From the IMG/VR virus record IMGVR_UViG_2576861193_000002: a stretch of 64,000 nt of DNA; one strand, given 5' to 3'. Shown here in pieces: positions 2,309 to 31,043 of this stretch. Source of the stretch: a virus (Duplodnaviria; Heunggongvirae; Uroviricota; Caudoviricetes). The notes beneath the pieces were generated by a model that was not told where the DNA came from, made no database searches, and saw nothing but the letters and a program-made list of their open reading frames with translations. Position 1 is the first letter of the stretch. The number at the start of each line of letters is the position of its first letter. The translations under genes were made by a program, and so were the position numbers.

Positions 2309-3071
2309 GCATGATCTCCACCATGCGCTGCGTCATCCGGACAAATCCATTTTCAATAGCCTGCTGATAATCAATGATCACCAGCGCCGACTCCTCGAAA
2401 AAACACTGAATTTCAGAGGGGGCGTGAGCGTAATAGTCCGCAATTCTGCTGAAATTAAACACCGTGTGACGTTCTGCCGCACACAGGAGGAATTTCTCAA
2501 TATCAGGCTCAAGGGACGCCGAACGTATCCGGCTGATCAGCTCCTGAGTTTTCGTATCGTCGTACAGTTCACTGATATCCGGTTTACCGCCCGACGGCTC
2601 ATAAACAGGCGTATCAATTTTCGTCGTATACGGCTCCTCCTCATTTCCTGTACCGGGCAAAACATCCGTCAACAGTTCATCAATTTCTGTCGGGATGAAG
2701 CCTGTCAGGGAGACATCAAAATCAGCATTGATTAGGTCCGACAGCTCCATCCGCAACAGATCTTCATCCCAGCCAGCATTCATCGGCAGGCGATTATCTG
2801 CCAGGCGGTACGCCTTTTTCTGCTCATCCGTCAGGCCAGACAGAACAATGACCGGAACAGAATCCATTTTGAGCATTTCAGCCGCCATAACACGACCGTG
2901 ACCCGCAATAATTTCGCCCTTTTCGTCAATCAGCACCGGATTAGTCCAGCCGAATTGCTTAATACTTTCTACCAGTTGTGCCACCTGCTCAGGGCTGTGC
3001 GTCCTGGCGTTGTGCGCATACGGTGACAATTCTTGTAATGGGCGATAGACTATCTTTAATTTCTCGCTCAT
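2280..3071 (-). CDS. ParB-like nuclease domain protein
   Basis: 263 aa; N-terminal ParB/Srx-like motif (…EIIAGHGRVMAA…); phage late region between trkG and terminase. Confidence 0.7.
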   Translation of the reverse strand: MSEKLKIVYRPLQELSPYAHNARTHSPEQVAQLVESIKQFGWTNPVLIDEKGEIIAGHGRVMAAEMLKMDSVPVIVLSGLTDEQKKAYRLADNRLPMNAGWDEDLLRMELSDLINADFDVSLTGFIPTEIDELLTDVLPGTGNEEEPYTTKIDTPVYEPSGGKPDISELYDDTKTQELISRIRSASLEPDIEKFLLCAAERHTVFNFSRIADYYAHAPSEIQCFFEESALVIIDYQQAIENGFVRMTQRMVEIMHGGEEEEYA

Positions 3072-3208
3072 ACAGCCTTGCTTTATGAATAAAACGCACC
3101 CCAGCAGCCAGTGCTACTGGGGACGGAGGGGTTGCTGGTAAAGTTAGGTATTGGATCAATGAGTGAGTCAACATAATATTAAACTCACAATTATAAATCA
3201 GCCATATA

Positions 3209-4666
3209 TTAGGAGCGCCAAAAAAAACCTGAAAACAATATAATAACAGGATAAATTTCAAGGCGACCAAGAATCATAGCTATGCACATTAAACATTTTG
3301 CAATGTCATTAAGCACTCCGAATGACGATACAGTAGCCCCAAAACCTAATCCCATATTATTAATACATGCAGCCACTGTTGCAAATGATGTAAGAAAATC
3401 ATATCCCATACCATTTAACACCAGTATAAAAAACACCGTGAAGAGAGTATAAAGAAAAAAGAAACTCCATACAGACCTCATTACACGATCTGTAACTATC
3501 TTCCCTCCTACATTTACACTCAACAACGCTCTGGGATGAGAAAGCTGATTTATCTCGTGTTTGCTTTGTTTGAAAAGTATAAGAAATCGAAGTGACTTAA
3601 TTCCACCACAAGTTGAACCTATACATCCCCCAAAGAAACTTGACAACAGCAAAAACACTATCGTGTGCGTGGGCCAACTTGCATAATCCTGCGTAGCTAA
3701 ACCATTATCAGTGAGCATGGAGCTGGCAAGAAAAAACGAATGAATAAAACTTCCATGCAAGTCATACATACCTATATGCCAGACCTGGAAAGAGGTAACA
3801 ATGATCACCCCTAAGGCTATTAACAGAAAGAAACGAAGTTCAATATCTCTGATTAAAGGTTTTATCGTTTTCCTGCTAATAACAATATACCAAAGAGTGA
3901 AGTTGAAAGCCGATAGCAGGGAAAAAGAACCAGCCACCAGCTCAACCAAATAGTTATTAAAATATCCGATACTCTCGCTATGAGTTGAGAAACCACCAAG
4001 CGAAACTGTGGAAATCCCGTGACAAATAGCATCAAACAAAGGCATTCCTGCAAGTCTATAACAGACAATACAAGCAATACCTAATAAAGAATAAGTTATC
4101 CACAGTGTCCGTGACGTATCGGCCAGGCGGGGAGTGAGTTTGTCATCCTTAAATGGCCCCGGCATTTCTGACTGATAAAGCTTTGCACCACCAATACCCA
4201 ATAATGGCAATACAGCAACCGCCAGAACAATAACTCCTAAACCACCTATAAAATTTAACTGTGACCGATAGTACAAATATGCCCGAGGTAATGAACTAAC
4301 ATCATCAATTACAGTTGCTCCTGTTGTTGTTATTCCAGAAACCCCTTCAAACAGAGCATCAATGAACGTTAAATTAAGTTCTGAGTCAATCCATAAAGGG
4401 AATGCACTAATAACAGAAAACAAAATCCAAAACATTACAATTATAATAAACCCATCACGGGTACGTAATTGAATGCCAGATTTCTTAGTTGTATACCACG
4501 CTCCGCCACCAATGCAAAAAAATATAACGAAAGTTATAAAGAAAACGAACAGGCTTTTTTCTTTATAAAACAATGCTACAACCATTGGTGGCAACATTGA
4601 AAGACTATAGAGCCAAACCAGGAACCCACACATATGAGTAACAACTCTTACATGAGATGTATTCAT
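3209..4666 (-). CDS. trkG: Trk potassium uptake protein TrkG (prophage-borne TrkH paralog)
   Basis: Polytopic membrane protein; N-terminus MNTSHVRVVTHMCGFLVWLYSL recognised as TrkG; AT-rich gene inside Rac, as in E. coli K-12. Confidence 0.9.
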   Translation of the reverse strand: MNTSHVRVVTHMCGFLVWLYSLSMLPPMVVALFYKEKSLFVFFITFVIFFCIGGGAWYTTKKSGIQLRTRDGFIIIVMFWILFSVISAFPLWIDSELNLTFIDALFEGVSGITTTGATVIDDVSSLPRAYLYYRSQLNFIGGLGVIVLAVAVLPLLGIGGAKLYQSEMPGPFKDDKLTPRLADTSRTLWITYSLLGIACIVCYRLAGMPLFDAICHGISTVSLGGFSTHSESIGYFNNYLVELVAGSFSLLSAFNFTLWYIVISRKTIKPLIRDIELRFFLLIALGVIIVTSFQVWHIGMYDLHGSFIHSFFLASSMLTDNGLATQDYASWPTHTIVFLLLSSFFGGCIGSTCGGIKSLRFLILFKQSKHEINQLSHPRALLSVNVGGKIVTDRVMRSVWSFFFLYTLFTVFFILVLNGMGYDFLTSFATVAACINNMGLGFGATVSSFGVLNDIAKCLMCIAMILGRLEIYPVIILFSGFFWRS

Positions 4667-4803
4667 ATCTAAATATTCTTTCAATTATAACCACCTTGCT
4701 GCAATATTATGATTATACTGTATAAAATTTAACTCCTCTTAGATCTTACTTCACTGTTCCTTATGAAACAATCATCAAAATGAATCATATTGTAGTTAAG
4801 ATT

Positions 4804-5268
4804 TTACTTTAAACACTGCTCGGTTATGTATTGCTGAGCACCTTCAAGTTGGGCCTGCATCATTACCAGTCGTTCCCGGAGGGTGAAATAATCCCGTTCA
4901 GCGGTGTCTGCCAGTCGGGGGGAGGCTGCATTATCCACGCCGGAGGCGGTGGTGGCTTCACGCACTGACTGACAGACTGCTTTGATGTGCAACCGACGAC
5001 GACCAGCGGCAACATCATCACGCAGAACATCATTTTCAGCTTTCGCATCAGCTAACTCCTTCGTGTATTTTGCATCGAGCGCAGCAACATCACGCTGACG
5101 CATCTGCATGTCAGTAATTGCCGCGTTCGCCAGCTTCAGTTCTCTGGCATTTTTGTCGCGCTGTTCTTTGTAGGCGATGGCGTTATCACGGTAATGATTA
5201 ACACCCCATGACAGGCAGACGACGATGCAGATAACCAGAGCGGAGATAATCGCGGTTACTCTGTTCAT
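4804..5268 (-). CDS. Rz i-spanin (inner membrane spanin)
   Basis: Near-identical to lambda Rz by eye ([15 protein letters not shown]… [41 protein letters not shown]). Confidence 0.9.
4863..5048 (-). CDS. Rz1 o-spanin lipoprotein, embedded in Rz in another frame
   Basis: 61 aa, lipobox VVGC, proline-rich ([15 protein letters not shown]); classic embedded Rz1. Confidence 0.85.
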
Positions 5269-5762
5269 TGCTGACCCCACAAACAGATTTCACGCTCAAT
5301 CTCACGACGAGTCATGAGACCTTTCCATTGCTTACCGCCAGCATATGTCCAGCGACGTAGCTGATCACATGCGCCTTTGATATCGCCCTGGTTTATTTTG
5401 CGAAGAAGCGTCGATGTTCTGAAATTGCCAGCACCCACGTTGTAAACGAATGAGTAAAGAGCGCCGCGCGTTGTTTCCGGTATATCGACTTTGATGTACG
5501 GGTTAATTTGTCTGGCGACCGTGGCAAGGTCTTTATTCAGCAGGGCTTTGCATTCTGCTTTGGTATACGTTTTACCGAGCATGATGTCTTTTCCTGTATG
5601 CCCGTGACATACAGTCCATACACCAACAATATCTTTGTATGGTATGTAGCTGACACCTTCCAGACCATCGTTACCACTTGGGCCAGTGATTAACACTGAT
5701 GCTATAGCAATTGCTCCGCCACCAATAGCAGCAGCAACGACTTTTCGTAATGATGGAGGCAT
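5265..5762 (-). CDS. SAR endolysin (phage 21 R-like lysozyme)
   Basis: 165 aa; N-terminal SAR segment [16 protein letters not shown]; lysozyme-like core; directly downstream of holin. Confidence 0.9.
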
Positions 5763-5977
5763 TATTCACCTCTCGCAGCCTTGCGCTTATCTTCTTTAAT
5801 CTTGAAATAAAGGTTTGTCAGGTACGTCAGCAGGCCAAATACCAGACTACCCAGCACACCGATTGCAGCCCACTGTGACGGAGTTACTCTATCGAGCAAC
5901 TGTAAAAACCAGTAGCCAGCACTGCCTGCGGAGGTGCCGTAGGCAATGCCTGTTGAAATTTTGTCCATGGATTTCAT
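5762..5977 (-). CDS. pinholin (phage 21 S-like) with MKSM dual start
   Basis: [26 protein letters not shown]… matches S21; SD ggaggtga upstream; starts at 5977 and 5968. Confidence 0.85.
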
Positions 5978-6228
5978 AGCCTCACCTCCGCACGGAACGG
6001 ATGGCATAGTTATTATATGTAGGCTTTCAGACACATCAATCAGAGCCTTAATTGATATATATGCTGGAGACGATGCAATATAAAAAGCTCGCCGTAGCGA
6101 GCTAATAAAATGTATTTCTCTGATATTATGTTTATTTGTATTAGCTCAGACTTGACATCACAGGTTTCGTATATAGAACATCATCAAATCTGTCAGTTTG
6201 CTATGAATGAGATATAGTAATTGAAGAG

Positions 6229-6624
6229 CTAACCTCGCATGTCAAAGCCAGATTTCTGAAAATCTCTGTAGACTTCCGGATTGTTGAAGGCCGGAAATTT
6301 GGCTTTATGAGCTGCGGACTTTATCGCTTCGCAATAGGCTTTATCACCGTTACTGGTAGATATTTTTAACGCCGTGCCATCCTGAGAGAATTCCATATGC
6401 AACCTGCATTTTTTCCCTTTCCAGTTATGCGGCTCATCAAGTTTGGCATTAATTGCAGCTCTGATTCCCCGCGCTTGCGCCCCCCATTCATCCTGATCAT
6501 CCCAGCGTCCTGAACTGCAACTACCTGTAGCAGTAGTTTTGTGGCAATCTGAAGGGTGTAAAGGTGTGCATCCCGCAACAAAACCGACCCAAAAAGTCAA
6601 CATAACGATTTTCTTTAATCCCAC
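6229..6624 (-). CDS. prophage lipoprotein with divergent TolA domain III-like C-terminus
   Basis: 131 aa; signal peptide + lipobox (VAGC); C-terminal region alignable with the paralog at 6775-7203. Confidence 0.6.
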   Translation of the reverse strand: MGLKKIVMLTFWVGFVAGCTPLHPSDCHKTTATGSCSSGRWDDQDEWGAQARGIRAAINAKLDEPHNWKGKKCRLHMEFSQDGTALKISTSNGDKAYCEAIKSAAHKAKFPAFNNPEVYRDFQKSGFDMRG

Positions 6625-6774
6625 TTCTTGCTCCTCAATCCATTAAAATCTCAGCAATAGTAGTTGTTACGTCCGCCACTGGCTCAGAGCTGACTATCCG
6701 CTAAATTTAGCTCAGTGCCGTAGCTGTGTCAGAACAAACCTAAGCCGAAACCGTTTATTACAAAACAATAAATA

Positions 6775-7203
6775 TCAGGGTTTAAAATCCAGCACCCCAT
6801 TTTGAAATACTTTATATACTTCCGGCGAAGGGGGGGCAGGTATATCAGCATTCTTTATCGCATTCATCGCTTCACGACATAAATCGAGGTCTCCACTTTC
6901 TCTTTTAACCTCCAGTAGAAGGCCATTCGGGGCCATATGCATTCTCAGTGTACACTCTTTTCCTGAATACTTACTCGCATCCCCGAACTGTTTTTCGATG
7001 GCGCTCTTGATTTGATGGGCATACAGACGGATATCCTCACTAACATCAGAAGTACGTTCAGATGAACTCACATACTGTGTCTCTATTGCTTTATCGGAGT
7101 AATATGATGTACGGTCATGATAATTTGTCGATACAGCATCAGTGCACCCGATAATAATCCCACTAATAATCAACGTAAGAATTGATGCGCTACGAAAACC
7201 CAT
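6775..7203 (-). CDS. prophage lipoprotein carrying a TolA C-terminal domain (domain III)-like module
   Basis: 142 aa; lipobox IIGC; C-terminus …IKSAIEKQFGDASKYSGKECTLRMHMAPNGLLLEVKRESGDLDLCREAMNAIKNADIPAPPSPEVYKVFQNGVLDFKP closely resembles E. coli TolA C-terminus as recalled. Confidence 0.7.
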   Translation of the reverse strand: MGFRSASILTLIISGIIIGCTDAVSTNYHDRTSYYSDKAIETQYVSSSERTSDVSEDIRLYAHQIKSAIEKQFGDASKYSGKECTLRMHMAPNGLLLEVKRESGDLDLCREAMNAIKNADIPAPPSPEVYKVFQNGVLDFKP

Positions 7204-8140
7204 TTTTCCTCACATATGTCATATAGTAAAGGATTATATATACCGTTGTTTTGGACGCTCAAACAGCGAATCAGATCAAATAAAACGCACATTTGTTAAC
7301 ATTTACACAAAGTCTGCGTGGGATATTCTGAAAGAATATCCATAATGTGGAGAGAATCTATTGAAGTGCATGGTGCCGGGTGCCTCCCGGTGAACAAAAT
7401 GTTCGTGATACCTGTCGGCGACAGAAAAGGTTAATGGTATCACCCCACCGCACAGGGGGATTCACCATGCAGGAGTTTTCTTAGCAAACTCACTGCGCGC
7501 CCGGCAACTCCCAACCACATAAAATGCGGAGTTTGTGGTATTTATGCATATAACTCGCAGGAATTATCTTAAAAAACTGATGTCGATCCGGATTAAAAAG
7601 AAGCAGGTCATCATCAGATGACTGGAAAAAAGGAAAACAAAAAATACTCATCATACAGTTTTGATTGCAGGGATGAGCCTGCTATGCACAATATGCAGAA
7701 TATAAGCAAGATAAAAATATGCAGGCATATTATTTCGGATTTTGTTATTAACACAACCTTTTTAATAATCATTTGGCATACAATAAACCAGCCCAAAAAG
7801 AACCGCCTAAACAGGCGGTTGGTCAATACAAAGGATGCTTCGTCTTTATTATAGTAATCTGAGGCGTCGGGTGTCTTGTATCAGACAACATATTGTCCCG
7901 CTAAACAGCGAATTACAAACCACCCTGCAATGATCTCTCATCTCATTTTATATGAGTTGACGACATCAGGATAACGCATCATCAGCCCCTGCCAAGAAAT
8001 ATCAAAACTCCCGCCAGCAATGTGTTATCACAATAATGTAAAAAAAACACAGCACCGAAACTATAACTGGTCTCTGTTATAATTTGGAGCAGAAAGACCA
8101 GTTGCCCAACTAGCAGCATTCTCCCCTGCTTTCCTGACGT

Positions 8141-8247: not shown

Positions 8248-8790
8248 TCAAGCCATTTTCTCAGCAAATGATTCACGCATGGGAATATATAGGGCATACT
8301 CAGCAACAGCTAACCAATTAGCAATCCGTTTTTCGCATGTGCTAAAACACCACTCTGGGTGTGCATCATTTAGCAATTCAGCCATTTTGCGCTTAGTCAT
8401 CCCCCGCCCTTCATAGCGTTGCCGGAGAATGCAAATCAATCCTGGATGCTCTGCCAGCACCTCACTTATGACTCGATCAATACATAACGCCTCTGCATCA
8501 GTACAATGCGCCAGCCAGCTCTTTTGCTTGCCGTTGATCATCTCTCGCAAAAACGCTTCCAGCTCAGCTTTCTCTATTCCCGCTTTTTTCATTCTGCGCA
8601 GGGCTTCATTAATGGCTGTTTTCGTCAGTTTTTTGGATGCCAACAACTGATTGAACATATTCCCTGACCTGCCACCGCCAATATACGACCAGCGCCCCCA
8701 CATACGTAGTTTTCCCTGAATCCAGACACTTTCCAGCGTGGTGAGGCGAAGGTGTTCTCCGCTTTTTCCTGTATTCGTTGGGTAAATCAT
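8248..8790 (-). CDS. late antiterminator Q-like protein
   Basis: 180 aa; position between nin-like genes and tR'/lysis cassette; Cys-containing Q-like C-terminus. Confidence 0.7.
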   Translation of the reverse strand: MIYPTNTGKSGEHLRLTTLESVWIQGKLRMWGRWSYIGGGRSGNMFNQLLASKKLTKTAINEALRRMKKAGIEKAELEAFLREMINGKQKSWLAHCTDAEALCIDRVISEVLAEHPGLICILRQRYEGRGMTKRKMAELLNDAHPEWCFSTCEKRIANWLAVAEYALYIPMRESFAEKMA

Positions 8791-10144: not shown

Positions 10145-10300
10145 TTACTCCTCAGGTTCGTAAGCTGTGAAGACAGCGACCTCCGTCTGACCGGTTCGGA
10201 TTCGCACCTCGCAGAGGTCTTTCCTCGTTACCAGTGCCGTCACTATGACGGTTAAACAGATGACAATCAGTGCGACTAACATCGCCTTTTGCTGCTTCAT
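10145..10300 (-). CDS. hok: Hok/Gef family type I toxin (HokD/RelF-like)
   Basis: MKQQKAMLVALIVICLTVIVTALVTRKDLCEVRIRTGQTEVAVFTAYEPEE; SD aaggag upstream; in-frame upstream extension in the six-frame ORF. Confidence 0.85.
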   Translation of the reverse strand: MKQQKAMLVALIVICLTVIVTALVTRKDLCEVRIRTGQTEVAVFTAYEPEE

Positions 10301-10780
10301 AGCCTGCTTCTCCTTGCCTTCCGGCGCGTAAGAGGCTAACCTACATGTGCAAAGCATGAAATTGGCCTCAGATTAATGTTAAGCGTCTTGCCGGACGCGT
10401 AATGTTATCTGGGGCTTTTCTCTATCTGCCTTTGGTGTTCATGCCTGAGGCAGATAGCCTCAAGCACCCGCAGCAATTCTACTTAACTCCCGTCACCTCG
10501 CCAATATAAAATCAATCAGAAAGGCGATCCATAAGAACAACAGCAAGACAATAAATTGCCATTACAGCCGCAATAGCTAGCGCACATTTGAGAACCAGCA
10601 CGACAACCTCCTGTATTGGACGTACACCAGTTCTGATAAATATGAGGCTGTCTCATCATTGATTCAATATAACTATTGGGTATAGTTTCTGTGATTTTGT
10701 TCTGTAGAAATGGAACACAACAACCAGTCACCACCAGCACTTCTTTAAATACGCCAAGTCCGACGCAAGCTAACCTTCTA

Positions 10781-10804: not shown

Positions 10805-11020
10805 CAAACCCGGCCAACTGACTCTTAAAGGGGCCGCAGGAATTTTTCGTCTGAACTTTCGAAGCTCCTCTCCCTGAAGACAGAAAACTTCTGTGTGCTG
10901 TGGGAATATTGAATCTTTGCCTTAGATATAAATAATTTTATCCCGCCTGAAGTTTACATTATTTTATTTATCTGTTTTTCTAAATCAGACTGCACTCCTT
11001 ACTTAAATCAGGAGCCAGTC

Positions 11021-12220
11021 ATGCCATTTGTTATTTATGTGTTTACTATCAGTGCCTTTGCGCTCGGACTCGCGGAATTTGTCCCCATTGGGCTGACAGA
11101 CGTTATGGCTCAGGGGTTGTGTGTGGGTGTGGAGCAGACCGGGGCAGCGGTTACAACCTATGCACTGGGGGCAACGTTCGCGGCACCCGTACTGTCTGCG
11201 CTGACAGCAAGCTGGAGCCGGAAAAATGTAATGCTTACAACTGCCGTTGTGTTTACTGCCGGTAGTCTGGCGGCCGCGTTTGCAGCCACATTACCTCAGC
11301 TCCTGTTAGCGCGGTTCATTGCTGGTCTGGGACACGGCCTGTTTCTGGCTGCGGCATCCAGTACCGCAGCTCGTCTTGCTGGACCGGGTAAAGCAGGCAG
11401 AGCGGTGGCTGTGGTATTTGGTGGCTTTACTCTGGCGATGGCAATCGGCGTACCGCTGAGTACATGGTTGGGGGGGGTGGTCTCATGGCGTCCAGTTCTC
11501 GGCGCTATTGCCGCTTTTGGCGCGTTCGGATTCCTTGGACTGTTGTTCGGTATGAAAGATCCCGTACGCAGCGTGCCCGGTGAACATAGTGACTCAGCAA
11601 TGCAGAATATCGGCATGCTGTTTAACCGTAAGTTGCTGGCCGGCGCGCTGGTTACGGTGCTGGCGTATGCAGGCTCGTTTACGGATTACACCTTTATCGC
11701 ACCTATTCTGACGCAGGTGACAGGGGTTACCGGAGCAACGGTGAGTCTGTTTATGCTGGTTTACGGTATTACAGCTGCGGTAGGTAATATTCTTGGTGGG
11801 AAACTTACCGACAGCATGGGGGTTAATCGTGCCAATATACTCATCATTAGCGGCATTGTTGTTGTCGTGCTTGGTATGTGGCTGCTGTCATCCTCACCGG
11901 TGAGCATGGGCATTCTGGTTGCGCTGCTGGGTATGGTGACATTTGCCGCAGTGCCGGCACTGCAGGCCCGTCTGATTGGTGTCGCTGAGCAACATGCTCC
12001 TCATGCGCATGGTGTTGCTGCCGGCCTGAATATTGCGGGCTTCAACTCAGGTATAGCGCTGGGATCAGTACTGGGCAGCATTACTATAAGCCACGCCGGT
12101 ATCGTGTATACCGGTATCAGCGGTGCGATTGTTTCTCTGCTCGGCCTGCTGTTGCTGCTTGCACAAATCCGTCGCAGCCACAGTCGTAAATTTCAACAGG
12201 TTAAAATCGTAGGCCAGTAA
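11021..12220 (+). CDS. MFS transporter (cargo gene)
   Basis: 399 aa, ~12 TM, Gly/Ala-rich MFS signature; GC-rich versus surrounding phage DNA. Confidence 0.85.
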   Translation: MPFVIYVFTISAFALGLAEFVPIGLTDVMAQGLCVGVEQTGAAVTTYALGATFAAPVLSALTASWSRKNVMLTTAVVFTAGSLAAAFAATLPQLLLARFIAGLGHGLFLAAASSTAARLAGPGKAGRAVAVVFGGFTLAMAIGVPLSTWLGGVVSWRPVLGAIAAFGAFGFLGLLFGMKDPVRSVPGEHSDSAMQNIGMLFNRKLLAGALVTVLAYAGSFTDYTFIAPILTQVTGVTGATVSLFMLVYGITAAVGNILGGKLTDSMGVNRANILIISGIVVVVLGMWLLSSSPVSMGILVALLGMVTFAAVPALQARLIGVAEQHAPHAHGVAAGLNIAGFNSGIALGSVLGSITISHAGIVYTGISGAIVSLLGLLLLLAQIRRSHSRKFQQVKIVGQ

Positions 12221-12231
12221 AGGGAGGTTAT

Positions 12232-12924
12232 ATGCTTACCCGTGAAAATATGCTTAATGGCACATTTGTCAGGGTGCATGAAGCGCTGCTCCCGGCGAAT
12301 ATGCTCTGGGACGCTGAAAAAATACGCGCATCAATGAACTCTACTCTGGAGGAGCGCCCGACGGGTGCTCCTGTCTGGATATTTGCCTACGGGTCATTGA
12401 TGTGGAATCCCGTGCTGGCGATTGAAGAAATGCAACGGGCCCGTCTGAAAGGATGGCAGCGCAGTTTCTGCATTCGTTTGATATCCGGACGAGCGACTCC
12501 TGATGTCCCCGGCAGGATGTTATCGCTCGACGAAGGTGGAATTACCGAAGGTATTGCGTTCAGACTGCCGGAATCGACTCTTATTAATGAGCTGGAAATT
12601 GTCTGGACGCGCGAGATGATAACCGGTCTTTACCGTCCGGTCTGGGCAGACGTTTCGCTAGGAAACGGTGAGGAAATTCAGGCGCTGGCTTTCGTATCAG
12701 ACAGACTGCATCCGCATTATGAACAGGACAATCTTACAGCGACCGTAGCGTTGAGCATCGCATCTGCCCGTGGAGACATTGGCACGAATGCAGATTATGT
12801 ATGGAAACTGCAGGCCACTCTGGGTGCGTTGGGAATACGGGATGATTACGTGAGTGAACTGGCCCTTGCTCTGCATGAGGCTCCCTGTAACGATAAACTT
12901 CATCAGCGAGGCGCTTCACTATGA
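12232..12924 (+). CDS. ChaC/gamma-glutamylcyclotransferase-like protein
   Basis: 230 aa; IFAYGSLMWNP motif typical of GGCT/ChaC fold. Confidence 0.7.
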   Translation: MLTRENMLNGTFVRVHEALLPANMLWDAEKIRASMNSTLEERPTGAPVWIFAYGSLMWNPVLAIEEMQRARLKGWQRSFCIRLISGRATPDVPGRMLSLDEGGITEGIAFRLPESTLINELEIVWTREMITGLYRPVWADVSLGNGEEIQALAFVSDRLHPHYEQDNLTATVALSIASARGDIGTNADYVWKLQATLGALGIRDDYVSELALALHEAPCNDKLHQRGASL

Positions 12925-13802
12925 GCCATCTGAGCCATCTGCGAACGTTTCTTGAGGCCTATCGCTCTGGCTCCTTTTCAAAGGCGGCAGAACTACTGGG
13001 CATCACTCAGCCCGCGGCGTCACAGCATATCCAGTCTCTTGAGACTCTGGTTGGTAAGCGTCTGTTTATCAGGCAGGCCAGAGGCGTGACGGCAACCGAA
13101 GCTGCGGATGAGCTTGCCCGCTCAGTTTCACCCTTCATTGATGGTCTGGAAGAAAAGCTGTCCTCTTTCCGGTCAGGCTCTGTACGCGGGGGAACAATTA
13201 ATCTGGCAGGACCGCCAGATTTTATTCATTCCCGGCTTGGGACAGTAATGGCTCCACTAATGAAGGAGGGGTATCGCCTACGCTTTCATACCGGCAATAA
13301 GCAACGTATTTATTCCCTTTTGCATGACGGGAGCGCCGATCTCGCTGTTACCGCATCTATGCCTGATGACCGTCTGTACGGCTATGCACATCTACTGACT
13401 GAACGCATGCTCCTTGTTCATGCTCCCGCCATGTCAGAGATCATCGGATCAGAACCTGGTGCTGAAACGCTTGCCTCATTACCGCTGATTGCTTATGACG
13501 AAGAGTTGCCACTGATTAGAGCGCTCTGGGCCTCCATGTTTCAGAGAGCCCCTGAGATGCAGGCTACATTCACCATTCCGGATTTACGTATTATCCGCGA
13601 CTTGGTCTGTGACGGCCACGGGTGGACAGTGCTGCCGGATTATCACTGTGACAATGACCTGAAAAGTGGTCGCCTGATTTCAGTGACACCTGCAGACCTC
13701 GCTCCGACTAATCATCTTTATCTGGTCTGGAACAAAAGGACGGCTAATAACAGCCGAACCGCCTATGTTCGGGATTACATTCTTAAAACGTTTCCGCGTT
13801 GA
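12921..13802 (+). CDS. LysR-family transcriptional regulator
   Basis: 293 aa; N-terminal HTH (…FSKAAELLGITQPAASQHIQSLE…); overlaps previous gene by 4 nt. Confidence 0.85.
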   Translation: MSHLSHLRTFLEAYRSGSFSKAAELLGITQPAASQHIQSLETLVGKRLFIRQARGVTATEAADELARSVSPFIDGLEEKLSSFRSGSVRGGTINLAGPPDFIHSRLGTVMAPLMKEGYRLRFHTGNKQRIYSLLHDGSADLAVTASMPDDRLYGYAHLLTERMLLVHAPAMSEIIGSEPGAETLASLPLIAYDEELPLIRALWASMFQRAPEMQATFTIPDLRIIRDLVCDGHGWTVLPDYHCDNDLKSGRLISVTPADLAPTNHLYLVWNKRTANNSRTAYVRDYILKTFPR

Positions 13803-13846
13803 TGTTTGAAACGGATGATTGGCGATGCGTATCATAAGTTACGTAT

Positions 13847-13870
13847 GTCCGCTTCTGGCACAAAGCAGAC
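13847..13870. repeat. hairpin repeat R1 (GTCCGCT-tctggcacaa-AGCAGAC)
   Basis: 24/30 identical to R2; sits between the LysR and DUF2254-like genes. Confidence 0.55.
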
Positions 13871-13932
13871 GCCCACTCTCACGCGAATGCTTTGCCCTTG
13901 ACTTGCCAACAACCGTATCGCTTGCTCCGCAA

Positions 13933-15225
13933 CTATGGTTTTTTATTAGAATCTTCGCCACTAAATAAATTATAATAAATTGATTTTATTAGATATCTGT
14001 CAGAATCTATATGGTCAGCACGAGTAGCATGCTCTAATGTTTCAAATGCTAGGGTTTGTGCGGCTTCAGCAAAAATTCCAGGCCAACCCTTACTCAGCAT
14101 CGACAGTCCTTTAAGTACCCTTATCTGAATTTCCCTCATACTGGCACCATCGCGCGCAACAGGTGAGAAAAAGTCTTCAAGTAGATCGTTATTCTGAAGT
14201 GGTGCAACATGTACAGAAGGATATTTCACTTCTATTTCATCAGATTTATTCTGCGCGTAAGCGGAAAGTATACGTACACCTCTGCCAATGACATCAATGG
14301 CGGTTCCAGGATCGTTCACTGCGGGGGAAAGGGCTCGGCAGGCTATTTCGGCCATGACGCTAAGACAAAATCGGGGGTCCTGAGCAAATGAACGTACATC
14401 CGAGACAATAATCGTCTCAAGTAAATCGGTGCTGATTGATGACTCCTGGCCCTGACTCAGGTACAAAACTGGCGTGGACGGATGTATGAAACTGCCCGGC
14501 TGCGCCACGAGGTATACATGACGGGGATCATTGGTCAGCAGCTTGCTGAGTTTCACCATATCAACATATTCAACATAGCCAATCTTTTTCGGATAAACTG
14601 CAACCGTTCCTTTCGGCTGTTCATTGTTCTCAAGCCATGGATATCCGCCGAGACAGGGATTTCTTGCTCTCGCAATAAATGTTTCGATGGCCGCCTGTTC
14701 TACTTTTGCCGTTGTCTCACCAACCCTCCCCAGAGAGGTCAAATGCTGTATCCAGCGAAGCAATGTGATGAGGATTAAGGCAATGACAACCAGTGTTACA
14801 ATGAATAAAATGACTCTCCCCCTTTCTCCATAAGCTCCCATATTGAGGGCAATAATCCCTACCAGACTGAAGAGAAAAGAACCGATGAAGGTGGCCAGTA
14901 CATTTTGTGTGGTGACGTCTTCAACAACTAAACGAGTAGCTCTGGGAGTCACATTAGTAGTGGCTGAACCGTAGGCTGTGACCATGATGCTCAGCGAAAA
15001 TGTGGTCACTGCCAGCATACTCGATGCCAGTATGTTCAGAATGTTATCGACTGCTTCCGCACCAACCTTCACGGAAACCGACTCAGGTATCATTGATTTA
15101 AAAAGAATTGATAAAAGGGCCGTTATTATTGCGACAATTGCGAATAACGTTGCCCTGAACCATAGTTTTTTAAATGTCTGCTTCAGCATCCATTTCCAGC
15201 GTGAAATCATTCTGCATTCCCTCAT
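13933..15225 (-). CDS. DUF2254-like membrane protein
   Basis: 430 aa; N-terminal TM helices then soluble domain. Confidence 0.55.
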   Translation of the reverse strand: MRECRMISRWKWMLKQTFKKLWFRATLFAIVAIITALLSILFKSMIPESVSVKVGAEAVDNILNILASSMLAVTTFSLSIMVTAYGSATTNVTPRATRLVVEDVTTQNVLATFIGSFLFSLVGIIALNMGAYGERGRVILFIVTLVVIALILITLLRWIQHLTSLGRVGETTAKVEQAAIETFIARARNPCLGGYPWLENNEQPKGTVAVYPKKIGYVEYVDMVKLSKLLTNDPRHVYLVAQPGSFIHPSTPVLYLSQGQESSISTDLLETIIVSDVRSFAQDPRFCLSVMAEIACRALSPAVNDPGTAIDVIGRGVRILSAYAQNKSDEIEVKYPSVHVAPLQNNDLLEDFFSPVARDGASMREIQIRVLKGLSMLSKGWPGIFAEAAQTLAFETLEHATRADHIDSDRYLIKSIYYNLFSGEDSNKKP

Positions 15226-15273
15226 ATTGCAGCCGGGATAAATAAATGCCGCCTCTGTGGCGGCATGTTGCTG

Positions 15274-17277
15274 TTAACGAACCAGATGCAGGAAGTGCAG
15301 GTGTTTTTCGTACTGGTCCAGTATGTCATTAATCAGCTGTTCCTGATTCCAGCCCATTACATCATAATTTTGGCCGCCCTCTTTGAGATAGACTTCAGCG
15401 CGATAATATCGATGTTGTTCACTCTGCTGCTCATCATTATCCAGCGCAGCGAGCGCGAAGGTCGGTGAGTTATACCCGCGAAGCCTCACTTCATATATAT
15501 AATTCAGCTCGTTGCCCAAATCGACTTCAAGGCGAATACGATCCTCGGCGGCGTCACTGATGTGGCTTATCGTTCCCTGCTTGTTAAGTTCCTCCTGAAC
15601 CAGCGTCATGGCGGGTTGGATAATGTCGTCCATAAAACGTTTCACAAGAGAGCGCTTCGGCAAATACGCGATATTGCGTAACCTTCTCTGCCAGGGAATT
15701 GGGTTACGTGCAGCCGTAGGAGCAATAGTCGCCATGCTAAGGCTTTCACGCTTGGTCAAATCCCGACGCAGGGCTTTTAACAGTCCGTATATGGATATTA
15801 ATAAGATAACTGAGAAGGGCAATGCACTCGCTATCGTTACGGTTTGCAACGCACTCAGCCCCCCTGCGATCAGCAGGGCAATAGCAACAACGCCCATGAG
15901 CGATGCCCAGAAAATTCGCTGCCAGACGGGCGTGTTTGCCACCCCACCTGATGCCAGAGTATCCACAACCATTGCCCCCGAATCAGCAGACGTTACAAAG
16001 AAGACGATGACCATCGCCATTGCAATGAATGACAGCACGGAAGAGAACGGGAAATGCTCCAGGAAATTAAACAGGGCAAGCGCAACATCCTGCTGAACGG
16101 TATTGGCGAGGTCAGTGGCGCCCTGGTTCATGATGAGATAGATGGCGCTGTTTCCAAACACCGTCATCCACATGAGCGTAAAGCCGGCGGGAACAAACAA
16201 CACGCCAGTCACGAACTCACGAATTGTCCTGCCGCGGGAAACGCGTGCAATGAACATACCTACAAACGGCGACCATGAAAGCCACCATCCCCAGTATAAT
16301 AATGTCCAGCCCCCCAGCCAGTTGCTCGACTTGGGTTCATACGCGTAAAGGTTGAACGTTTTACTCACCAGTTCCGACAGATAACCACCCGTATTTTCCA
16401 CAAATGACTTCAGCAGAAGCACAGTGGGACCCAGGCACAAGACCAGCGCCAGGAGCAACACCGCCAGGCCCAGATTAAGCTCAGACAGGATGCGTATTCC
16501 CTTGTCCAGGCCGGACACCACCGAAATCGTCGCTAACCCCGTGATGACCACGATCAAAATGACCTGTACCGTTTCATTGATGGGCACGCCGAAAAGATGG
16601 TTCAAACCGGCATTCACCTGCAATACACCGTAACCCAGCGATGTTGCAACGCCAAAGACAGTGCCTATCACGGCGAAGATATCAACCGCGTGGCCTATAG
16701 GCCCGTAAATGCGATCGCCGATAATGGGATAGAGCGCAGAACGCAGCGTTAAAGGCAGACCGTGACGGTAACTGAAAAAGGCCAGAATCAGCGCCACGAT
16801 GGCATAAATTGCCCATGCGTGCAGACCCCAGTGGAAGAACGTCAGGCGCATGGCTTCCTTCGCTGCCGCAACGGTCTCTGGAGTGCCGACAGGTGGCGAA
16901 AGATAATGCATCACAGGTTCGGCAACGCCAAAGAACATCAGGCCGATCCCCATCCCTGCCGAAAAAAGCATCGCGAACCAGGAGTGGTAGCTGAAATCAG
17001 GCTGCGCATGGTCTGGGCCCAGCTTTATATCACCGTAACGTGAGAGTCCAAGGAACGTGACGCTCAGTAAAATCAGGGCCACAGCAAGTATGTAGAACCA
17101 GCTGGCATTCGTGAAGATTTGTTGCTGAAGTAGTTTAAAATTTTTGTCGGCGACATCCGGGAATACGGCGGCAAAGGCGACAAGAAGGAAAATTAGCAAA
17201 GCAGATGTAAAGAATACCGCTTTGTTAATCTGGCTTGTAGACTTCTTTGGGGTTGTATCATTTTCACTCATAATCAT
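15274..17277 (-). CDS. BCCT-family (betaine/carnitine/choline) transporter
   Basis: 667 aa; 12-TM BCCT-like core with Trp-rich signature (…GGWTLLYWGWWLSWSPFVGMFIARVSRGRTIREF…). Confidence 0.85.
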   Translation of the reverse strand: MIMSENDTTPKKSTSQINKAVFFTSALLIFLLVAFAAVFPDVADKNFKLLQQQIFTNASWFYILAVALILLSVTFLGLSRYGDIKLGPDHAQPDFSYHSWFAMLFSAGMGIGLMFFGVAEPVMHYLSPPVGTPETVAAAKEAMRLTFFHWGLHAWAIYAIVALILAFFSYRHGLPLTLRSALYPIIGDRIYGPIGHAVDIFAVIGTVFGVATSLGYGVLQVNAGLNHLFGVPINETVQVILIVVITGLATISVVSGLDKGIRILSELNLGLAVLLLALVLCLGPTVLLLKSFVENTGGYLSELVSKTFNLYAYEPKSSNWLGGWTLLYWGWWLSWSPFVGMFIARVSRGRTIREFVTGVLFVPAGFTLMWMTVFGNSAIYLIMNQGATDLANTVQQDVALALFNFLEHFPFSSVLSFIAMAMVIVFFVTSADSGAMVVDTLASGGVANTPVWQRIFWASLMGVVAIALLIAGGLSALQTVTIASALPFSVILLISIYGLLKALRRDLTKRESLSMATIAPTAARNPIPWQRRLRNIAYLPKRSLVKRFMDDIIQPAMTLVQEELNKQGTISHISDAAEDRIRLEVDLGNELNYIYEVRLRGYNSPTFALAALDNDEQQSEQHRYYRAEVYLKEGGQNYDVMGWNQEQLINDILDQYEKHLHFLHLVR

Positions 17278-17519
17278 TTATTCCATTAATTAAATCCGCA
17301 CTGGATAGAAGGTACTACCTCTCACAGAGTAGCAAAGTTCAACTGGCTATGCGGGGTTAATCGGAATGCATGGTGGAATGAGTGCCGATACAAATCATCC
17401 TATATTCTAAGGAGTTTTAAGTTACTCAGCCTGCCAATTACTGGGGCATTTAATTTGTATGATCTGTATCAAAGCTGGGATATAAGTTAAGTGAAGTATA
17501 TTAGGCACGAATTACCAGC

Positions 17520-26209: not shown

Positions 26210-26404
26210 ATGAGATATGACAATGTTAAACCATGTCCATTTTGTGGTTGTCCATCAGTAACGGTGAAAGCCATTTCAGGATATTACCGAGCGAAGTGTA
26301 ACGGATGCGAATCCCGAACCGGTTATGGTGGAAGTGAAAAAGAAGCACTCGAAAGATGGAATAAACGAACCACTGGAAATAATAATGGAGGTGTTCATGT
26401 ATAA
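26210..26404 (+). CDS. ralR: restriction alleviation protein RalR (Lar)
   Basis: 64 aa, MRYDNVKPCPFCGCPS… zinc ribbon. Confidence 0.8.
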   Translation: MRYDNVKPCPFCGCPSVTVKAISGYYRAKCNGCESRTGYGGSEKEALERWNKRTTGNNNGGVHV

Positions 26405-26606
26405 AATTACCGCCACTATTGAAAAGGAAGGTGGCACTCCTACTAACTGGACAAGATATTCAAAATCTAAACTAACGAAATCAGAATGCGAAAAAATGCT
26501 CTCAGGTAAAAAAGAAGCAGGCGTTTCCAGAGAGCAGAAAGTAAAACTGATAAATTTTAATTGCGAGAAACTTCAGTCCTCGAGAATTGCATTGTATTCA
26601 AATTAA
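26397..26606 (+). CDS. ydaC: YdaC-like protein
   Basis: 69 aa, MYKITATIEKEGG…; Rac synteny. Confidence 0.7.
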   Translation: MYKITATIEKEGGTPTNWTRYSKSKLTKSECEKMLSGKKEAGVSREQKVKLINFNCEKLQSSRIALYSN

Positions 26607-30886: not shown

Positions 30887-30998
30887 AAAAAAAAGCCGAC
30901 TCATCAAAGTCGGCGTCGTACGAATCAATTGTGCTATGCAGTAATTCAAAAAAGGAAGTAAGACAATATGGAGCGCAACGCCCATCGCTTGACGTTGC
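30887..30998 (-). ncRNA. fnrS: FnrS small RNA
   Basis: Reverse complement reads GCAGGTGAATGCAACGTCAAGCGATGGGCG…GCCGACTTTGATGAGTCGGCTTTTTTTT, matching FnrS as recalled; terminal hairpin + U-run. Confidence 0.8.
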
Positions 30999-31043
30999 AT
31001 TCACCTGCAAGAGAGATATTGCCCTGAATGGGTAGAGAGTTTA

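Follow-up and report, generated by a model that had tools for sequence, protein, structure and literature searches.

Two lipoproteins with TolA domain III folds in the late operon of a Rac-family prophage, candidate decoys for Tol-dependent colicins and filamentous phages

Why would a lambdoid prophage carry two small lipoproteins that resemble the C-terminal domain of the host protein TolA, next to its own lysis genes? The question is raised by positions 6229-7203 of a 64,000-nt stretch of caudoviral DNA (IMG/VR record IMGVR_UViG_2576861193_000002), the whole of which is called the window in the following. The region contains two genes on the minus strand, here named L1 (142 amino acids, aa) and L2 (131 aa). 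The entry of colicins and filamentous phages via TolA is textbook knowledge, and tolerance is usually traced to mutated tol genes or receptors. We propose, with a probability of roughly one half, that L1 and L2, tethered to the outer membrane, serve as decoys that divert Tol-dependent colicins and filamentous phages.

Architecture of L1 and L2

Both genes are intact open reading frames (ORFs) with a Shine-Dalgarno motif that can be read directly from the sequence (GAGGAA for L1, GAGGAG for L2). The L1 protein begins with MGFRSASILTLIISGIIIG-C20-T and the L2 protein with MGLKKIVMLTFWVGFVAG-C19-T, exhibiting the lipoboxes IIGC and VAGC, respectively, which fit the pattern [LVI][ASTVI][GAS]C. The G-C-T triplet is invariant across the aligned L1 homologues and L2. 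Both proteins match the Pfam family PF06519 (TolA C-terminal, gathering score 25), L1 with 82.6 bits (E 2.4e-23) and L2 with 54.6 bits (E 1.3e-14). Using phmmer against the PDB sequences, residues 55-142 of L1 align without gaps to residues 334-421 of Escherichia coli TolA (E 5e-28), whereby 52 of 88 positions (59%) are identical. L2 is found in the same manner with E 5e-9 and agrees with TolA at 27 of the 88 positions (31%). L1 and L2 are 29% identical to each other (E 2e-18) and hence paralogues. Moreover the cysteine pair Cys363/Cys388 of TolA is kept in both proteins in ungapped register and is invariant in the family alignments.

The structures were predicted using AlphaFold. Residues 1-50 of L1 are unstructured in the model and comprise the signal peptide and a tether of ~30 residues, which is variable and disordered. 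Residues 51-142 are modelled with a predicted local distance difference test score (pLDDT) of ~90 and superpose on TolA domain III (TolAIII) in 1TOL and 2X9A with a root mean square deviation (rmsd) of 0.7 A over 88 residues. The model of L2 likewise has a pLDDT of ~90 in the domain and fits 3QDP with an rmsd of 1.0 A over 86 residues. For both models the top Foldseek matches are all TolAIII structures; among those found with L1 is 2X9A, the complex of g3p of phage IF1 with TolA domain III. L2 has an additional element. Its mature N-terminus is nearly invariant among its relatives (C-x-PLHPS-x-CHKTTATGSCSSGRWDDQDEW) and carries two extra cysteines (residues 20-45, positions 6490-6567). This motif is predicted to form a small beta-hairpin (pLDDT 63-76).

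The original prediction had described two paralogous lipoproteins, the 131-aa protein being a diverged version of the 142-aa one, and the ORFs, lipoboxes and identities given above bear this out. It had also recognised the TolA C-terminus in L1. The motif was right, the extent of about 60 residues was not, as the match covers the whole 88-residue domain III. Among the checks that had been suggested, alignment to E. coli TolA and structure prediction agree with it: the alignments are significant and the models adopt the TolAIII fold of three strands and three helices.

Are L1 and L2 then TolA proteins, as database names seem to imply? L1 passes the cutoff of the tolA model TIGR02794 (75.6 versus 59.45 bits), which explains its tolA label in RefSeq. 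The full-length model NF007065 in turn gives 107.8 bits for L1 and 53.7 bits for L2 and its cutoff of 213 is not reached; the match is limited to profile positions 293-386 of 387. In place of the transmembrane anchor of TolA (domain I) there is a lipoprotein signal peptide, predicted to be cleaved at the lipobox cysteine, the long helical domain II is absent and the tether is only ~25-30 residues long. Furthermore, the genes lie outside a tolQRA-tolB-pal cluster, their neighbours being the Q-like, holin, lysozyme and Rz genes of the phage. That L1 and L2 are substitutes for TolA which couple energy to the outer membrane, as the naming might suggest, is scarcely credible in view of the missing domains, the failed NF007065 match and the lack of a tol-pal operon.

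In RefSeq genomes annotated by the Prokaryotic Genome Annotation Pipeline (PGAP; NZ_CP029492, NZ_CP033250) L1 is listed as a tolA pseudogene 'missing N-terminus', while L2 is a 'TolA C-terminal domain-containing protein' started at an internal Met (124 aa). Accordingly, L1 might be debris of a captured tolA gene, flagged incomplete and above the TIGR02794 cutoff. We regard this as extremely improbable. L1 is an intact ORF with Shine-Dalgarno motif, start codon and invariant lipobox, and both AlphaFold2 models are confident. The ratio of nonsynonymous to synonymous substitution rates (dN/dS) is 0.25-0.35 in the L1 domain (L1 versus variants of 65-68% identity, see below) and 0.07 in the L2 domain (L2 versus its plasmid and phage relatives), thus well below 1 in both. 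Between Escherichia, Citrobacter, Enterobacter, Klebsiella, Raoultella and Serratia the identity of L2 relatives is 78-89%. Moreover, of 5426 complete E. coli genomes, 773 contain the whole cassette in near-identical form and 1340 (about a quarter) some match to it. L1 and L2 are under purifying selection. Because dN/dS is low in both genes and L2 is conserved across genera, the pseudogene call for L1 is wrong; the label is misleading and should be corrected.

Binding faces and proposed function

If L1 and L2 are free copies of TolAIII, which ligands could they bind? The N1 domain of g3p, colicin N (ColN) and TolB share a site on TolAIII that consists of helix 334-349 and the edge strand beta3 (415-420), to which a strand of the ligand is added by backbone hydrogen bonds at D418 and K420 (PMC4339652; PMC7391070). 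Colicin A (ColA) uses the opposite edge, formed by L375-P380, K368, K379 and K396 (PMC3365938). L1 is identical to TolA at 11 of 16 positions of the helix and at 4 of 6 positions of the strand, including L417, D418, F419 and K420. The strand reads GVLDFK in L1, SGFDMR in L2 and APLDFK in TolA, with no proline at the D418 and K420 positions of either L1 or L2. The ColA site is partly kept in L1 (LLEVKR versus LLDIKP), with K379 and K396 retained and K368 replaced by H. L2 retains the fold, D418 and the beta-forming residues, together with few other side chains of the known faces.

The affinity of TolAIII is ~1 uM for ColN and g3p and ~40 uM for TolB (PMC4339652). As the invaders bind ~40-fold tighter, a decoy should favour them over the host partner already at modest amounts.

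Membrane sorting was evaluated from the residue following the lipidated cysteine. It is Thr in both L1 and L2. Asp at this +2 position, the inner-membrane retention signal of E. coli, is found in none of the 59 lipobox-bearing family representatives. L1 and L2 are thus predicted to reside in the outer membrane.

From these features the following function can be proposed. Because the membrane anchor and the long helical domain are absent, L1 and L2 can have no coupling to the TolQR motor. A free domain III is unable to transmit force, and occupying ligands is all it can do. A copy tethered beneath the outer membrane, near the porin exits, would intercept group A colicins and related bacteriocins at their TolA-binding epitopes, and likewise the N1 domain of g3p when a filamentous phage enters the periplasm. 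The N-terminus of TolB, which E-type colicins need for the handover to TolA, may be bound too. The invader would hence never reach energised TolA, and two diverged paralogues would broaden the range of invaders. Levengood-Freyermuth 1993 reportedly observed colicin tolerance with TolAIII in the periplasm. As a precedent from engineering, exported TolAIII acts in trans on the envelope (PMC6195910). No PADLOC model of a defence system matches the window, and our literature search yielded no functional study of TolAIII lipoproteins on prophages or plasmids.

Relatives on plasmids and other prophages

Other lambdoid prophages carry a variant of L1 with 65-68% identity and without L2. It is located directly after tRNA-Met(cat)/tRNA-Arg genes and before the RNA STnc100, AsxR (an anti-stx2 small RNA, sRNA) and nanS-p, the AsxR match being at the gathering score (63 bits). 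We take this position to be the place of stx2AB on maps of Stx2 phages. The original prediction had placed the two genes in a cargo slot as used for Stx, and the location of the variant agrees well with that. In 124 genomes a match to the variant spans at least 80% of the query; the variant gene lies 3-4.5 kb away from the holin gene. At one of these loci (L045) a phage-borne general porin gene (2649-3791, minus strand; Porin_1, E 8e-151) is encoded on the other strand, ~1.2 kb upstream of the L1 variant. Porins are colicin translocators, and the pairing may not be accidental.

Relatives of L2 with 88% identity are present on ~600 plasmids. On IncI1/B/O, I-gamma/K1 and K2/Z plasmids they follow immediately after the relaxase gene nikB, and the scan revealed no promoter- or terminator-like site between nikB and the L2 relative. 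They also occur near psiB-psiA-hok of 92-kb IncF plasmids carrying toxB. The I-pili of IncI-complex plasmids are the receptors of phage If1. An L2 relative of 83% identity is furthermore found on a phage-like contig (L072, 3539-6116), between genes for an ImpB/UmuC-type polymerase and a SRAP (YedK-like) protein and near the terminase genes.

A third context is the Klebsiella ColRNAI plasmid NZ_CP107420 (10,060 bp), which encodes a cloacin/E3-type bacteriocin of the Tol pathway type, with immunity and lysis genes. At 6445-7178 it carries a gene for a 123-aa TolAIII lipoprotein (lipobox LTAC) and, directly after it, one for a 121-aa protein with signal peptide and TonB C-terminal domain (Pfam TonB_C, E 9e-11). 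Judged by its predicted domains, the pair represents free docking-domain copies of both import routes. On other Klebsiella plasmids (10-12 kb) the match likewise falls on a tolA annotation combined with one for TonB. A 'TolA protein' on a cloacin-type plasmid is mentioned in the literature without further detail (PMC10269471).

The wider family was retrieved by a profile search in 1.8 billion representative proteins and comprises 625 relatives. Among the best 150 of these, 92 have a length of ≤170 aa, and 59-60 of the 92 exhibit a lipobox. In PHROG, L1 and L2 are full-length members of group 5772 (E 7e-65 and 2e-62), a bin of unknown function.

The divergence of L2 raises the question whether only the fold of TolA has been reused. 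L1 and L2 could be periplasmic modules retargeted to another partner such as a host envelope protein, a component of conjugation or pili, or a different class of toxin, which is possible for L2 in particular. L2 is only 31% identical to TolAIII, most side chains of the known faces are gone, its cysteine-loop motif near the lipid anchor is invariant, and its relatives sit in the transfer region of I-complex plasmids. A thioredoxin-fold gene precedes a relative on a Klebsiella plasmid, and some distant members are found among chromosomal genes. However, the 59% identity of L1 and its largely intact face are hard to explain without shared ligands, and an alternative partner is suggested by none of our results. 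We consider retargeting improbable.

Taken together, the distribution suggests a more general view, in which decoys of the import machinery are widespread among the mobile elements of Enterobacterales, namely lambdoid prophages, I-complex and F-type plasmids and small bacteriocin plasmids. These decoys would be free docking-domain copies of the two envelope import motors, outer-membrane-tethered TolAIII and in some cases a periplasmic TonB C-terminal domain. They would constitute an unrecognised class of defence conferring broad tolerance to Tol- or Ton-dependent bacteriocins and to pilus-specific filamentous phages. We put this forward tentatively, as somewhat short of an even bet.

The late-operon cassette and comparison with known systems

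The coordinates of all features are summarised in Table 1. The original prediction located the two lipoprotein genes between Q/tR' and the holin gene, and the arrangement is indeed as stated. Upstream lies a Q-like gene, whose product reaches the model Phage_antitermQ only at the borderline (26.1 bits versus a cutoff of 26), and also upstream are genes for a YbcO nuclease and a DUF1367 protein. Downstream follow the genes of a P21-type holin, phage lysozyme and Rz/Rz1.

Table 1. Positions of the L1/L2 cassette and of other features in the window
Feature	Position	Strand	Details
L1 ORF	6775..7203	minus	ATG start, 142 aa
L1 signal peptide (residues 1-19)	7147-7203	minus	
L1 lipidated Cys20 codon	7144-7146	minus	lipobox, predicted
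L1 disordered tether (residues 21-50)			AlphaFold model
L1 TolA domain III fold (residues 51-142)	6778-7053	minus	AlphaFold2 model
L2 ORF	6229..6624	minus	GTG start, 131 aa
L2 Cys19 codon	6568-6570	minus	lipobox, predicted
L2 Cys27/Cys36 conserved mini-hairpin	just after lipid anchor		AlphaFold
L2 TolA domain III fold (residues 45-131)	6232-6492	minus	AlphaFold2 model
P21-type (S21-type) holin, EssD-like	5762..6034	minus	Pfam Phage_holin_2_1, E 4.5e-35
Terminator-like hairpin	6076..6103	minus	AGCTCGCTACGGCGAGCT then TTTTATATTG; 7-bp stem, 5 G-C pairs, T-run
Sigma-70 promoter-like site	7233..7262	minus	TTGAGC, 18-nt spacer, TATAAT; 10/12 consensus matches
STnc100-like RNA (RF02076)	7314..7500	minus	Rfam, 86.6 bits versus gathering score 47
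Late promoter-like site and hairpin	7877-7848, 7820-7801	minus	consensus scans only
Q-like protein (DUF1133)	8248..8790	minus	Pfam DUF1133, E 2.5e-107
trkG	3209-4684	minus	
sok	10295-10469	minus	
RalA	26403-26581	minus	
FnrS	30891-31008	minus	

Promoters and terminators were called by consensus scans; as the copies of the cassette are ~99% identical, conservation is uninformative here. The sequence upstream of L1 was also aligned to that upstream of the 65-68% variants. As the latter lie behind tRNA genes, the two are not homologous, and the alignment thus has no power for promoter conservation. The late promoter-like site and hairpin downstream of the Q-like gene are candidates for pR' and tR'. 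The -10 element of the sigma-70 promoter-like site ends 30 nt upstream of the L1 start codon, which makes it a candidate for a Q-independent promoter of the cassette. The terminator-like hairpin, a strong one, lies in the gap that separates the stop codon of L2 from the start of the holin gene; the terminator scan found none between L1 and L2. With a promoter-like site, two genes and a terminator-like hairpin the cassette looks like a moron. The G+C content is 0.36-0.48 over 6000-7350 and 0.47-0.53 in the lysis genes (4800-5700), a modest contrast.

The unit exchanged between phages is larger than the two genes. It extends from 5761/5775 to 7394 and comprises the holin gene, the terminator-like hairpin, L2, L1 and a leader of 190 bp. 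With 99% identity this module is also found behind a different Q gene and before a different endolysin gene in other phages, and elsewhere the slot is filled by other cargo. The boundary of the module at 7394 falls inside the STnc100 copy of the window, which directly precedes the cassette. STnc100 copies are located upstream of L1 in related prophages (L004, 5444-5634; L008, 4700-4890) and downstream of the L1 variant at the stx-type loci (L045, 5599-5807; two copies in L063, 5599-5803 and 5854-6062). STnc100 may hence be a conserved junction for the swapping of cargo by recombination.

This position suggests the main alternative, namely that L1 and L2 assist lysis or release. TolAIII produced in bulk off the Q-dependent late transcript would titrate TolB or disturb Tol-Pal and loosen the outer membrane (leakiness, vesicles), leading to faster or fuller lysis or to better release of progeny or toxin cargo. 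The location between Q-like gene and holin gene is in line with this, as are the joint movement of L1, L2 and the holin gene in one module and the presence of the L1 variant in the presumed stx2 slot, from which cargo is set free when the cell lyses. L1 has also kept the strand to which TolB binds in TolA. According to PMC6195910, which cites Levengood-Freyermuth 1993 and Wan and Baneyx 1998, E. coli exporting TolAIII to the periplasm leaks periplasmic proteins, so that domain III is active in trans. On the other hand, the phage already possesses a holin, an endolysin and Rz/Rz1, and the L1 variants are distant from the holin gene. The candidate terminator before the holin gene suggests that the cassette is also transcribed while the lysis genes have to be silent. 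Weakening of Tol-Pal also leaves the pairing with a TonB C-terminal domain unexplained, and the relatives on conjugative and bacteriocin plasmids have no phage lysis to aid; there, the role cannot be phage lysis. Since the bacteriocin plasmid has both docking domains and the I-pilus plasmids carry the gene, the plasmid contexts favour defence over lysis. Overall we consider a function in lysis rather unlikely. If Tol-Pal were weakened at lysis nonetheless, L1 and L2 would be accessories of lysis or vesiculation of a new type.

As for the decoy function, expression could be low in lysogens and strong after induction, because the cassette looks like a moron and at the same time belongs to the Q-dependent late operon. 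SOS-inducing stress triggers both the induction of prophages and the release of colicins by neighbouring cells, such that protection would be needed during the latent period. Even a costly decoy would do no lasting harm in a cell bound to lyse. A gene of CP-933O induced 32-fold by ciprofloxacin has been linked to 'TolA' (PMC11125564). In the table of that study it is a tail fibre protein, and it was not used as evidence for expression.

Several observations weigh against a decoy function. The late-operon site, the linkage to the holin gene and the variant in the stx slot point to expression mainly in cells near lysis, and protection from colicins would therefore pay only in the latent period. 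The candidate promoter is weak on its own, as the scan found 11 sites compared to 7.5 expected in shuffled sequences. On the binding faces known from TolA, L2 lacks most of the side chains. Moreover the conservation of side chains is in general a weak predictor of ligand binding by TolAIII, because beta-strand augmentation depends mainly on the backbone. Finally, some distant TolAIII lipoprotein genes lie amid ordinary chromosomal genes, so that a housekeeping role in some species is possible; the contigs of the remaining distant representatives are too short to judge the context.

The prophage itself can be assigned. The window is collinear with an annotated prophage of the Rac family at 99.7-99.8% identity (intR, recET, ralR, kilR, trkG). 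The gene trkG follows directly after Rz/Rz1 as in Rac of strain K-12, which is not known to carry L1 and L2, and Rfam finds sok (the hokD antitoxin RNA), RalA (the RalR antitoxin sRNA) and FnrS in the window. The position of trkG and the presence of these three RNAs assign the window to the E. coli Rac locus. The annotation of sieB in strain ECCHD184, a close match (locus L098), shows an internal stop. Between hokD/sok and the replication genes there is a block of ~6-7 kb (~11000-17300) of non-phage cargo, encoding an MFS transporter, a gamma-glutamylcyclotransferase, a LysR regulator, a DUF2254 protein and a BCCT transporter. This block was located by way of the annotated twin locus L098, whose coordinates are offset by 13,901.

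If L1 and L2 are decoys, they would be a common, horizontally transferred and ignored determinant of survival in the bacteriocin warfare of the gut. They would also shape which cells are infected by Ff, If1 and CTX-type phages, and would affect engineered colicins, phage display and therapy tools when applied to wild strains. The occurrence of such a gene on conjugative plasmids that display pili would be explained, and the stx cargo slot would have a second known use besides toxins.

How do L1 and L2 compare to known systems? The TolA_C family, the annotation bins and the effect of TolAIII in trans are already known, whereas the architecture as a natural lipoprotein, the occurrence on prophages and plasmids and any function are undescribed in the searched literature of 8 million papers. 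With domain III of E. coli TolA (1TOL, 1S62, 3QDP/3QDR, 2X9A) they share the fold, PF06519 and the disulfide pair, and L1 keeps the face for g3p, ColN and TolB. Unlike TolA they are encoded by a prophage and, as predicted, lipid-anchored at the opposite membrane. The recombinant, exported TolAIII likewise places domain III by itself in the periplasm, where the construct affects the Tol pathway in trans. However, it is a soluble, overexpressed host sequence, while L1 and L2 are natural, diverged, predicted to be lipid-tethered and selected on mobile elements.

Llp of T5 and Cor of phi80, N15 and HK022 are small phage lipoproteins of the outer membrane facing the periplasm, a location that is predicted for L1 and L2 as well. 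Both presumably keep incoming parasites out at the cell envelope (for Llp, see bioRxiv 10.64898/2026.03.26.714494). Llp and Cor, whose folds are unrelated to that of L1 and L2, plug the receptor FhuA by binding to it, whereas L1 and L2 would mimic a periplasmic co-receptor. Nothing indicates that this prophage uses TolA for its own entry. Comparison to stx2AB cargo and to the morons bor and lom shows the same insertion slot, and the cassette has a candidate promoter and terminator around its genes and a G+C content below that of the lysis genes. In contrast to stx cargo, the products are unrelated and would be aimed at the bacterial envelope, not at a eukaryotic host. PHROG 5772 and the PGAP name 'cell envelope integrity TolA C-terminal domain-containing protein' are annotation bins that are silent on lipoprotein architecture and role. 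A mirror image is provided by filamentous phages themselves, as Boeke, Model and Zinder reportedly found in 1982 that g3p of a resident phage blocks TolA and thereby causes colicin tolerance and superinfection resistance. There, a ligand saturates the TolA of the host, while in the case of L1 and L2 a copy of TolA would soak up the ligand.

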